Source: an uncultured Solirubrobacterales bacterium
GTDB lineage: Bacteria; Actinomycetota; Thermoleophilia; Solirubrobacterales; 70-9
Assembly: GCA_963705365.1 (NCBI GenBank)
Contig: OY970074.1
Location: forward strand, 866,064-930,063
DNA: 64,000 nt
Direction of reading: 5' to 3'
Both the position numbers and the translations under genes were made by a program. The notes under the pieces were generated by a model that was given only the letters and a program-made list of their open reading frames with translations, was not told where the DNA came from and made no database searches. Below, piece after piece: positions 6,202 to 62,672 of this stretch. Within the stretch, counting starts at the first letter, position 1, and each line of letters opens with the position of its first letter.

Positions 6202-6216
6202 GGCGGGGTGATGGGA

Positions 6217-6357
6217 GGGACCTGGTCGCCCTCCAGTCGAATTAGTCGCGCACCCTTCGGGTGCGGCTCCGGATGATGGTGCGCGCCTATGGCGCGCAGG
6301 AGTCGGATTGCATGTCGCGGCCTGCGGCCACATTCGACTGGAGGGCGACCAGGCCCC
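6217..6357 (+). repeat. family-1 nested-hairpin intergenic element, copy A (GCTCCGGATGAT / GATTGCATGTCGC core)
   Basis: 6221-6242 pairs perfectly with 6332-6353 (22 bp). The 89-nt core aligns with cores at 40586-40677 (+) and 40855-40944 (-). Confidence 0.9.
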
Positions 6358-6387
6358 TCGCCAACACGTCGCCTAGGCTCATTTGCT

Positions 6388-40555: not shown

Positions 40556-40707
40556 GGAGGGGTGTCGGTAGTGCCCCGCGGGAATTGGGTCGCGCGCCCT
40601 GCGGGCGCGGCTCCGGATGATTGTGCGCCCCTCTGGGGCGCAGATGACAGATTGCATGTCGCGCCCCTTCGGGGCACATTCCCGCGGGGCACTACCGACA
40701 CCCCTCC
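40556..40707 (+). repeat. family-1 nested-hairpin element, copy B
   Basis: The perfect 30-bp outer stem pairs 40556-40585 with 40678-40707. The core 40586-40677 aligns with copies A and C. Confidence 0.9.
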
Positions 40708-40822
40708 ACGCACGAGCTCCAAGCAGGCGCCCGGCTCCCGGCAGCTTTTGCGAAAGCTGACGATCCTCGGCCGCTCCGACAGGCAGAAAGCTTCCACCCT
40801 GAGCTGTCCCAGGCTGCGTGTT

Positions 40823-40975
40823 GGAGGAGGGGTCTGGCCATCCCCCGGGCGAATGTCGCCGCAGGCGGCGAAATGCAATCTCATTATCTGCCCGCCATAG
40901 GCGGGCACCATCATCCGGAGCCGCACCCGAAGGGTGCGCGACAAATTCGCGCGCGGGGGTGCCGGCATCCCTCCC
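40823..40975 (-). repeat. family-1 nested-hairpin element, copy C (inverted relative to B)
   Basis: The reverse complement of 40855-40944 aligns with the A and B cores. The outer stem is imperfect (40842-40854 with 40945-40959, plus degenerate extension). Confidence 0.85.
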
Positions 40976-43788: not shown

Positions 43789-45075
<1,287 letters not shown>

Positions 45076-45086
45076 GGGAGGCAGTA

Positions 45087-45207
45087 GGAAGGGGCGGGGC
45101 ACCCCTTTCTCGGAGCACCTCGTCGGGAGTGTCGCCTTCGGCTGCCGCCCGGAGGCTGCCGGCCCTCCTCATGCTGAGTACCGAGGAAGGGGTGCCCCGC
45201 CCCTTCC
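45087..45207 (+). repeat. family-2 nested-hairpin element, copy D (AGCACCTC ... CATGCTGAGTA core)
   Basis: The perfect 21-bp outer stem pairs 45087-45107 with 45187-45207. Confidence 0.88.
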
Positions 45208-45290
45208 CCGACACGCCTTCGCGGAACGGCTGGACTAACGGCGCTATTGAAAGCTGCCGCACCGCGCAGCGTCTGCTGGAGCTCGGTTGT

Positions 45291-45417
45291 GGGGAGGGTG
45301 CCGGTGGGGGTCTCCCGGTACTCAGCATGGAGCCGAGCCACTGTGGACCGGGGCGTCAGCCAATTGCCGCTTCTCTCGGCGGAGGTGCTCCGGGAGACCC
45401 TCACCGGCACCCTCCCC
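45291..45417 (-). repeat. family-2 nested-hairpin element, copy E (inverted relative to D)
   Basis: The 28-bp outer stem, with one mismatch, pairs 45291-45318 with 45390-45417. The core carries tactcagcatg and ggaggtgct, the reverse complements of the copy D motifs. Confidence 0.88.
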
Positions 45418-45446
45418 ACATAGGCGCACCTATCTAGACTCGCCGC

Positions 45447-50210: not shown

Positions 50211-50586
50211 CGCCTTCGAACGCGCCCTCACTGGCGAGGTAATTGCCCGCTTCGAGCGCAAGGGGCTTCGCATCGCCGCCCTCAAGTCGATGCGCGCCGA
50301 CGAGTCGATCGCCAACGCTCACTATGCGGAGCACGCCGAGAAGCCGTTCTTCGGCGAGCTCGTCTCCTTCATCACCGGCGGCACGCTGGTGGCGATGGTG
50401 CTCGAGGGCTCCGAAGCGGTGCCGGCGGCCCGCCAGCTGATCGGGGCGACCAACCCGGTCGAGGCGGCGCCCGGTTCAATCCGCGGGGACTTTGCGCTGG
50501 AGGTCACCTTCAACATGGTGCATGGGTCCGACTCGGATGAGTCGGCTGAGCGCGAGATTGGGATCTGGTTTCCCGAGCTGGCGTAG
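50179..50586 (+). CDS. ndk: nucleoside-diphosphate kinase
   Basis: 135 aa. LILVKPDAF; the active-site His is in NMVHGSDS. Confidence 0.93.
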
Positions 50587-50702
50587 TGGCGGGGATCCGG
50601 GTAGGGGCTGCACTTAACTTTTTCGTGGGGCGCCGGCGGCCGTTCGAGATTCGCGGCGGCGAAAAAGTACAAGGCGTTCCGCCCCTACCCGGATCCCCGC
50701 CA
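50587..50702 (+). repeat. family-3 nested-hairpin element, copy F (TTTTCG ... CGAAAA core)
   Basis: The perfect 22-bp outer stem pairs 50587-50608 with 50681-50702. It spans the whole ndk-maf spacer and ends on the A of the maf ATG. Confidence 0.88.
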
Positions 50703-51289
50703 TGAGCGGAGCACGGGAATCCAGCTTGATCTCGAAGCGGGTGGTTCTGGCGTCCGGGTCGCCTCAGCGGAGGGAGATCCTCTCCAAGCTCGGCATCGAG
50801 TTCGAGGTTTTGGTGCCTGGCGTGGAGGAGCTCACCGGGGGAGACCCGGAGGTTGAGGTGGTGGAGAACGCTCGGTTGAAGGCTCGGGCGGTTGCGGCGG
50901 GCGCGGATGATTTGGTCATCGGCTGCGATACCGATGTCGTGCTCGATGGGAAGGCGTTGGGGAAGCCGGCGGATGAGGTGGAGGCGCGCCGGTATCTCGA
51001 TCGGATGGCGGGGCGGGCGCATACCGTGATGAGCGGGCTCGTCGTCCGCGAGGGTGGGGAGGAGCGAAGCGGGCTGGAACGGACCTCGGTGGTCTTCAAG
51101 GAGCTCTCGGAGGCCGAGAAGGAGCGGTACGTGGGGTTCGGGGAGTGGCGGGGGCGGTCGGGGGGGTATGCGATCCAGACCCTGGGCTCGACGCTGGTGG
51201 AGCGGGTCGAGGGGAGCGTCTCGAACGTGGTCGGGCTGCCGGTGGGGTTGCTGCTGGAGCTCGCCCCTCGCCTGTTCACACCTGCCTGA
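50702..51289 (+). CDS. maf: Maf family nucleotide pyrophosphatase
   Basis: 195 aa with [14 protein letters not shown] and GAYGIQ-like GGYAIQ. Confidence 0.88.
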
Positions 51290-61030: not shown

Positions 61031-61155
61031 GGGAGGGGCCGAGGGGTCCCTCCCATTTCGCTGGGATTTTCGCCGTTAGCGCCGCGTCTCTCGCCGCGAG
61101 CTCCGCTGCGAAAATCAGGGACGCCGCTCATGGGAGGGACCCCTCGGCCCCTCCC
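61031..61155 (-). repeat. family-3 nested-hairpin element, copy G
   Basis: The perfect 25-bp outer stem pairs 61031-61055 with 61131-61155. An inner inverted repeat is gattttcgc...gcgaaaatc. Confidence 0.88.
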
Positions 61156-62555: not shown

Positions 62556-62672
62556 GCCCGGTCGGGTGTCCCTCCCGCTGCGCTGTCGTTTTCGCTCGGA
62601 AACTCTGTGGCCTCGCGAGGTTCGGGTGGGCGAAAACGTAGCGCCGCTTGCGGGAGGGACACCCGACCGGGC
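62556..62672 (+). repeat. family-3 nested-hairpin element, copy H
   Basis: The perfect 23-bp outer stem pairs 62556-62578 with 62650-62672. An inner inverted repeat is cgttttcgc...gcgaaaacg. Confidence 0.88.

Follow-up and report, generated by a model that had tools for sequence, protein, structure and literature searches.

A doublet of long hairpins in the clpX-valS spacer

We have analyzed a stretch of 64 kb of DNA from an uncultured Solirubrobacterales bacterium (the window, by which we mean the whole of that stretch), and within it two long hairpins of opposite orientation, named D and E, that occupy the spacer between clpX and valS at 45076-45446. The flanking genes were identified by equivalog models as clpX (open reading frame (ORF) 43864-45075) and valS, with tig and clpP lying upstream and folC downstream. 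The component parts of the spacer are as follows.

45073-45075, + strand: clpX stop codon TAA, 11 nt before the D stem
45087-45112, + strand: 5′ arm of the D hairpin, of the D-type stem class
45113-45181, + strand: D core, 69 nt, in the clpX sense; minority subfamily GAGCACCTC-GTCGGGAG...CCCTCC-TCATGCTGAGTAC
45182-45207, + strand: 3′ arm of the D hairpin
45208-45239, + strand: D tail, with motifs CGACACGC (45209-45216) and GGAACGGCTGG (45223-45233)
45240-45260, no strand: the doublet's central small hairpin, decayed in the window (GGCGCTATTGAAAGCTGCCGC)
45261-45287, - strand: E tail, read on the - strand as CGAGCTCC..AGACGCTG..
45288-45317, - strand: low-coordinate arm of the E hairpin, of the E-type stem class
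45318-45390, - strand: E core of 73 nt, from the main subfamily and antisense to both clpX and valS (nhmmer 70 bits, E = 6e-21)
45391-45420, - strand: high-coordinate arm of the E hairpin
45430-45446, + strand: native valS leader CTATCTAGACTCGCCGC, outside the repeat and setting its right boundary

Both elements are long, near-perfect hairpins, as an initial annotation of this sequence had described them (D at 45087-45207; E measured here as 45288-45420). Pairing in the D stem is perfect for the outer 21 pairs and extends to 26 with a single T•G, while the E stem comprises ~30 bp with one G•T on the + strand; the two stems are separated by 80 nt. On the + strand D is calculated to fold with -91 kcal/mol (z = -6.5) and E with -104 kcal/mol (z = -8.5), and for each of them none of 200 shuffles was as good. 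The entire spacer folds into two separate hairpins. The two cores start with GAGCACCTC and finish with CATGCTGAGTAC, D on the + strand and E on the - strand. The exact end motifs that the annotation had found shared by the two copies in opposite orientation, the 14-mer CATGCTGAGTACCG and the 11-mer CGGAGCACCTC, are each present at just two sites in the window, one in D (+) and the other in E (-), and a full-sensitivity profile search found no third copy of the D/E core family there. The best explanation of the locus is that D, E and the intervening 80 nt constitute a single copy of a composite palindromic repeat.

It had also been remarked that the G-rich arm lies on the 5′ side in both copies despite the inversion of the cores, and this was taken to say something of how the unit inserts. 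The observation is true but uninformative. It is automatic for any perfect inverted repeat, because the arms of a hairpin are unchanged by reverse-complementing, whatever the orientation of the loop. The deduction was a logical slip, and the arms are silent on insertion.

Two further features of the flanks were observed. A -10-like TAGACT lies at 45435-45440, 6 nt before the GTG of valS (45447), an arrangement that looks like a leaderless-mRNA promoter abutting the repeat. On the other side, if the clpX ORF is begun at the first start codon that follows the upstream stop, it encodes 403 aa, from which ~20 N-terminal residues of ClpX models are absent and in which the zinc finger is partly missing; an unusual start codon or a sequence error are possible causes.

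The repeat belongs to a large family in Solirubrobacterales

How general is this repeat? A scan for both motifs, using one genome per species, returned at least 120 loci (L001-L120), on which the family counts given here rest; L070, L109 and L112 are chance matches without stems. The loci listed are nearly all from Solirubrobacterales or from metagenome-assembled genomes labelled 'uncultured Actinomycetes'. Among them are at least 152 copies by exact match, and at least 160 by profile search, distributed over ~25 genomes, and one chromosome of 2.56 Mb carries at least 21. The presence of the motifs in ~25 Solirubrobacterales genomes refutes a chance local duplication. The annotation suggested a true repeat family in which the stems are long, the sub-terminal motifs conserved and the inverted doublet recurrent, and this is borne out across genomes.

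A second scan was anchored on the E-type stem alone, and was blind to the core. It returned 17 hairpins, every one of which carries the D/E core family, altered-junction subfamilies included. The core is 68-77 nt in length, and 70-77 nt in nearly all copies. Core lengths differ by steps that are not multiples of three, and an encoded peptide was rejected for this reason.

Neither search gave a match in the plasmid collection or in viral contigs. At gathering thresholds Rfam 15 has no match in the whole window, and run locally in E-value mode it gave only sub-threshold look-alikes of microRNA hairpins. Literature searches found nothing on repeats in Solirubrobacterales. This is apparently a large, lineage-specific, multi-copy family that has gone undescribed.

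The composite unit and its exchangeable cores

The unit is more than two hairpins. It comprises a hairpin, a tail, a small central hairpin, a second tail and an inverted hairpin. The orientation of doublets is tail-to-tail (+-) in 38 cases and -+ in none; by composition 22 are D+E, 6 are E+E and none is D+D. Their commonest spacer is 80-92 nt. In 134 tails there are positional motifs after the 3′ arm, CGAGC or ACAGC near +5 and RGACGC near +17, and CAGCT is a further tail motif near +30. Alignment of 17 doublet spacers gives the D-side tail as CGACACGCA..GGACGGCUGAG (also given as CGACACGCA..GGACGGCTGAG). The E-side tail is CGAGCTCC..AGACGCC, and the consensus of the central hairpin is GCAGCTTT-loop-AAAGCTGC. 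The central hairpin of L113 has changed on both sides (GGGAGCTT..AAGCTCCC), and a second type, CCGAGACCGC..GCGGTCTCGG, is found at other loci. The window spacer (45208-45287) conforms to this pattern, with its central hairpin decayed. The only tail-tail helix predicted is a conserved 5-bp GGACG/CGUCU; since this pairing is short and shows no covariation we take the tails to be sequence motifs rather than the strands of a helix.

The tig-clpP spacer of the window contains another doublet (40556-40707 on the + strand and ~40824-40975 on the - strand, with a linker at ~40708-40823). Its core family is a different one, GGCTCCGGATGAT..GATTGCATGTCGCG, in which three inner hairpins covary between the copies. 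Its stems also start GGAGGGG..., that of the second copy being decayed, and it has the same kind of tail and central hairpin (GGCAGCTTTTGCGAAAGCTG). A common architecture for the two families of the window had been proposed in the initial annotation, and it extends to the sequences of the tail and central hairpin. Because a doublet of another family has these parts too, the cores can be regarded as alternative inserts on a common scaffold of stem, tail and central hairpin.

Other long-stem elements are present in the window. A single copy of the tig-clpP core family, with a 28-bp stem, lies at 6215-6359, 12 nt past a TGA stop codon. Elements of a third kind occur at 61031-61155 and 62556-62672; their core is TTTTCGC...GCGAAAA, and their stems, of 26 and 23 bp, are perfect. 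There is a looser relative at 50565-50724, and all three lie just past gene ends.

Stem, core and junction

The outer stem has a median of 25 pairs, in a unit of ~120 nt with a core of ~72 nt. The stems of D and E had been thought unrelated in sequence, and this fails when the family is considered as a whole. There are two conserved classes, E-type GGAGGGTGCCGGTGGGGGTCCCTGG (n = 109) and D-type GGGAGGGACGGGGTACCCCTGCTCG (n = 41). Within them nearly all positions vary, and the two arms change together. Standard pairs occupy 97.8% of alignment cells, compared with 73.4% in shuffles and 42-52% in slid controls; 1046 cells have changed on both sides, compared with 281 in shuffles; and such changes are seen at 24 of the 25 outer-stem pairs. 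The outer-stem tally is 3398 Watson-Crick pairs, 20 G•U, 46 A•C and 55 others. Within the stem interior, where mismatches amount to ~1%, A•C and C•A together number 15 and G•T and T•G together 4. Some of the mismatches near the core are fixed traits of subfamilies, for example the C•T in gctcg/cgatc. G•U is tolerated no better than other mismatches, and this suggests that the complementarity of the arms is maintained at the level of DNA. The pattern is unlike the usual drift of an RNA helix, and fits arm-to-arm correction at the DNA level or frequent re-copying.

Within the core, ~40 nucleotides hardly vary among some 25 species. The core helix P2, GCCGNG/CNCGGC, covaries at the position N (51 A-U, 46 C-G and 36 G-C), and in subfamilies is replaced by GGCGGG/CCCGCC or by GGGAG/CUCC. 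The last of these defines the subfamily of D, found also at L006, L048 and L001. Single-sequence minimum free energy folding and RNAalifold concur on P1 and P2 only for the fold of the core, the interior being subfamily-specific.

Subfamilies with altered junctions reveal that the stem runs on into the conserved motifs, as GAGCAC/GAGUAC. The junction contains an invariant C-G pair, and a G•U that becomes A-U in one subfamily. An A•A opposition is replaced by C-G in 9 of 24 sequences (15 A•A and 9 C-G), and the mixed state was not found once. It had been proposed to ask whether the stems covary while the motifs remain fixed. The stems do covary, and the motifs are nearly though not absolutely fixed, since there are subfamilies with changed, co-varying junctions. 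The inner hairpin of the D-associated subfamily has a G-N-R-A-N loop (GNRA-like), with 13 G•U compared with 4 A•C. The motif GACGCC recurs, in the core and in the tail. By-eye attempts to accommodate GAGUA/CUGA as a k-turn or a loop E gave no fit. Both the junction and the inner hairpin look like those of a folded sense strand. We think that both levels matter, with a palindrome copied as DNA, and a single-stranded fold that is recognized, either as RNA or as single-stranded DNA during copying.

The hairpins follow stop codons

A co-oriented gene is called upstream of 86 copies, and in 73 of these the stop codon lies 0-26 nt before the stem, mostly at 6-15 nt. For single copies, the gene on the 5′ side is co-oriented in 55 cases out of 67, and the median distance is 11-13 nt. 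The doublets are flanked by convergent genes in 17 cases and by co-directional genes in 12, and no doublet separates divergent genes. Where the genes are co-directional the D-type module adjoins the upstream stop codon in 9/9 (p = 0.004), and the same is true of the window. The upstream genes are unrelated housekeeping genes that share nothing, and a common regulon was rejected.

None of 135 copies has five or more T in the 10 nt that follow the stem, where the mean is 1.5 T, and terminator-like sites in the window are no commoner than in shuffles. These are not canonical intrinsic terminators, in the sense of a GC-rich hairpin with an immediate U-tract.

Some other observations concern the same region. 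The stop codon is TAG in 48 of 73 genes preceding a copy, compared with 258 of 663 other genes at the same loci (p = 5e-6). The stems of all the families start with a Shine-Dalgarno-like GGAGGG ~10 nt past the stop codon and finish with CCCTCC, and CACCTCC, which is identical to the 3′ end of 16S rRNA, is carried in the core. GC skew (8-kb loci, two complete chromosomes) was noisy, and gave no replichore assignment.

Gain, loss and copying

Eight orthologous clpX-valS spacers were compared (L004, L010, L051, L069, L091, L121, L131 and the window). That of L051 is empty, comprising 65 nt that end in the valS leader. L069 and L010 have a single E-type hairpin with its core in the clpX sense (+), the window and L004 have D(+) and E(-), and in L121, L131 and L091 a hairpin of yet another core family is followed by E(-). 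The leader is kept beside valS in all eight, the empty spacer included. Similarly, the tig-clpP spacer is empty in L069, contains a D+E doublet of the present family in L051, and the other-family doublet in the window. Genes gain, lose and exchange the element at their 3′ ends.

Copies within one genome can be closely similar. In chromosome OY969571.1 the E-type modules at three distant loci are 92-97% identical, the variable interior of the core included, and beyond the foot of the hairpin the identity is lost. At the boundaries of these three copies no target-site duplication is visible. A CTCACC repeat at L004 was considered as a target duplication, and proved to be part of the stem extension; the repeat is absent at L029 and L026. 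A chimeric copy is found at 4880-4960 of L025, where an E-type arm, with a core's first third, is joined directly to an inverted copy; it resembles a product of recombination or deletion between the halves of a doublet. Empty and filled orthologous sites, near-identical distant copies and chimeric copies show that the element is DNA that is copied within genomes. Identical stems had been named as a sign of recent amplification of a transposable element of the miniature inverted-repeat type (MITE). The stems are mostly non-identical, and it is the few within-genome copies of 92-97% identity that point to recent copying.

Within the clpX-valS spacers of L131 (~180-740) and L091 (~190-500) there are an extra 250-550 nt between the hairpins, which include a central hairpin of the second type (GAGACCGCAAAAACC..GGTTTTTGCGGTCTC) and perhaps a small ORF. 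With its A-run, GC stem and T-run, GAGACCGCAAAAACC..GGTTTTTGCGGTCTC resembles a bidirectional terminator. The recurrent neighbours in the flanks of the element are transporters, dehydrogenases, sigma factors and similar.

Comparison with known repeats

The known systems closest in kind are the mosaics of repetitive extragenic palindromes (REP), bacterial interspersed mosaic elements (BIME) and REP doublets forming hairpins (REPIN) of proteobacteria, together with the TRIT hairpins of mycobacteria. The REP and BIME sequences of Escherichia coli and its relatives, as described by Gilson and by Bachellier, are extragenic and multi-copy, and lie after genes or within operons. A BIME is a mosaic of two related types of palindromic unit in alternating orientation, with a few conserved linker motifs. 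The present repeat is similarly constructed, with D-type and E-type hairpins joined tail-to-tail by conserved tails and a central hairpin. In contrast to BIMEs, its units are ~120 nt rather than ~35 nt in length with perfect stems of 25 bp, each unit encloses a conserved core of ~72 nt that has a helix of its own and a structured junction, a single stem and tail scaffold serves several core families, and the host is actinobacterial. There is no evident resemblance to REP consensus sequences. A further mark of BIMEs is binding of IHF, gyrase or Pol I.

Similar repeats of ~120-150 bp with terminal inverted repeats (TIRs) are the Correia elements of Neisseria and the enterobacterial repetitive intergenic consensus (ERIC), which form long hairpins when co-transcribed with neighbouring genes. 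Their terminal repeats are conserved family-wide, and Correia elements duplicate a TA target. Neither is known to have a conserved structured loop or a coupling to stop codons.

REPINs consist of a pair of inverted repeats and a spacer that form a long hairpin in single-stranded DNA or mRNA, with compensatory changes across the hairpin, and they are reported to be randomly placed in extragenic space (PMC3116915). With the system of REPINs and REP-associated tyrosine transposases (RAYT) the present family shares the compensated hairpin, dozens to hundreds of copies, the occurrence of singlets and doublets, and copying within genomes. However, REPINs have conserved ends and a loose spacer, whereas here the core that forms the loop is conserved and the stems drift; the tight coupling to stop codons is a further difference. 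Moreover, a 25-bp stem with a core of 70-77 nt is not the short 20-40-nt palindrome of a REP with its conserved 5′ GTAG head, and there is no RAYT among the recurrent neighbour families of the sampled flanks (~1 Mb).

The TRIT ('tuberculosis Rho-independent terminator') is a conserved palindromic hairpin lacking a U-tract, with 147 copies in M. tuberculosis and a very narrow distribution of distance to the nearest stop codon, reported only from Mycobacterium (PMC3152330). It has in common with the present family an actinobacterial host, a conserved hairpin in many copies, a narrow stop-codon distance and the lack of a U-tract. Yet the hairpin of the TRIT is short and simple, and its centre lies within the coding sequence at about -8, whereas here the stem starts at about +6 to +15 past the stop codon, and there is a large structured core, and composite doublets. 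In vitro, hairpins without a U-tract did not cause mycobacterial RNA polymerase to terminate (PMC3993855), and this argues against a self-sufficient terminator here.

Interpretation

We favour, with a probability of about 0.6, the view that the repeat is a mosaic palindromic element like REPs, BIMEs and REPINs, which spreads as DNA and is transcribed as a hairpin of the 3′ untranslated region (UTR). In this mechanism the DNA of the element is copied within genomes, as shown above, and the arms of its hairpins would be kept complementary at the DNA level, either by arm-to-arm correction of the palindrome or by frequent re-copying. A module lies just past a stop codon, ahead of the next promoter and oriented in the sense of the upstream gene. 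It would for that reason be transcribed as part of the 3′ UTR, and the transcript would fold into a very stable hairpin without a U-tract. It probably blocks 3′ exonucleases, or marks the point at which the mRNA is ended by factor-dependent termination or processing; it is probably not a self-sufficient intrinsic terminator. The stem-core junction, with its invariant G•U, its A•A oppositions and the switch between A•A and C-G, and with GACGCC in both core and tail, may be the recognition site of a copying enzyme or of an RNA-binding factor.

A number of points weigh against this reading. No target-site duplication was seen, and among the recurrent neighbour families of ~1 Mb of element-bearing flanks (only recurrent families were examined) there is no transposase or other mobilizing gene. 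The core is more conserved than the stems, the reverse of what is found in REPINs and MITEs. The sense coupling to stop codons and the polarity that places D first are unexpected for a selfish repeat that is passively tolerated. The junction and the inner hairpin are RNA-like, and selection at the RNA level may be the main force and not a by-product. Finally, transcription of the element is deduced from its position only.

A rival reading is that the repeat is primarily a cis-acting structured RNA of the 3′ UTR. The core would be the functional module, either self-processing or the place where a termination, processing or decay factor binds, presented or protected by the long stem; copies would persist because each gene needs one, and the spread of DNA would be incidental. 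The placement of copies in the sense of the upstream gene, 0-26 nt past the stop codon, speaks for this, as do the ~40 near-invariant core nucleotides across some 25 species while P2 covaries. The invariant G•U and A•A oppositions of the junction, the change from A•A to C-G without a mixed state, the G-N-R-A-N loops with G•U exceeding A•C by 13 to 4, and the lack of an excess of canonical terminators point the same way. Set against this, the outer stem is intolerant of G•U, in every doublet one member is antisense to whichever single transcript is considered (and in the window there is no convergent gene opposite E(-)), one and the same site may be empty or carry a different core family, there is no Rfam match in the window, and predictions give no consistent fold for the core's interior. 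On balance we find this account possible, but doubtful. A more speculative proposal, to which we would give slightly less credence, takes the cores as exchangeable functional RNA modules, with the scaffold delivering a structured RNA that defines or processes mRNA 3′ ends. Such an RNA might be self-processing, or a site at which an unknown termination or decay factor docks, and copying of DNA would be the route by which the cell or the element installs end-markers on genes. At least four core families are found in the same stem, tail and central-hairpin scaffold ~10 nt past stop codons, in a lineage that shows no excess of canonical terminators.

A true REPIN/REP system would be non-autonomous, its elements moving as hairpins of single-stranded DNA through the action of an HUH/Y1 transposase (a RAYT) that is encoded in single copy elsewhere in the genome. 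Compensated changes in hairpin inverted repeats have been described for REPINs too, there are dozens of extragenic copies per genome without target-site duplication, and the imperfect, strand-asymmetric foot of the hairpin (G•T, A•A) could serve to distinguish strands. The GTAG head of E. coli REPs has a counterpart in a GTAG at the 5′ foot of 35/135 copies, but TAG enrichment there is confounded by the stop codons. Furthermore, RAYT genes are normally flanked by REPINs, yet no Y1 transposase is present among the recurrent neighbours of the 120 loci listed, and units of ~120 nt with a conserved loop are not 20-40-nt REPs with a loose spacer. A system of this strict kind seems to us unlikely. 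A classical MITE, in which the ~25-nt arms would be TIRs bound by the transposase of a parent insertion sequence (IS), possibly with duplication of TA, is very unlikely. Its attractions are a size of ~125 nt, terminal inverted repeats, multiple copies, empty and filled sites, and TA...TA flanks on some copies. However, the arms match within copies and not across them, the opposite of what is expected for sites of a common transposase, and the repeat has neither family-wide TIRs nor, at the boundaries of the three near-identical copies, a target duplication. There is no parent IS in the sample, in which the only kb-spaced '+ ... -' pair (L061, unscanned) surrounds ordinary-looking genes. CTA at the 3′ foot is at background (21/135 compared with 19/135), and orientation follows the direction of the neighbouring gene. 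Lastly, the 72-nt core might flip between its 25-30-bp inverted arms as an invertible switch. Beside the same valS leader the E-type core is indeed (+) in L010 and L069 and (-) in the window, L004, L121, L131 and L091. But the (+) cases are single hairpins and the (-) cases doublets, which separate acquisition explains; orientation relative to genes is strongly non-random, and no recombinase gene was found nearby, among recurrent neighbours. We regard such a switch as highly improbable.

Significance

The repeat is an element of the REP/BIME/REPIN kind with three unusual features: a conserved, structured core, exchangeable core families on one scaffold, and a strict placement and polarity after stop codons. 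Its function and the machinery that copies it we infer. If it is only selfish, it is a new REP-like system in a poorly studied group of uncultured soil bacteria, and would be useful for strain typing and for studying how palindromes stay perfect. The repeats explain intergenic spacers that range from 65 to >900 nt among close relatives, and they provide an annotation rule for these genomes, namely a gene end, ~10 nt, and a GGAGGG... hairpin.

Many Actinobacteria are without canonical terminators, which raises the question of how their mRNAs end. In this lineage a large share of gene ends are marked by hairpins that are modular, highly stable and have a conserved core. If the cores are recognized as RNA, they would point to an unknown factor that forms the 3′ ends of mRNA.

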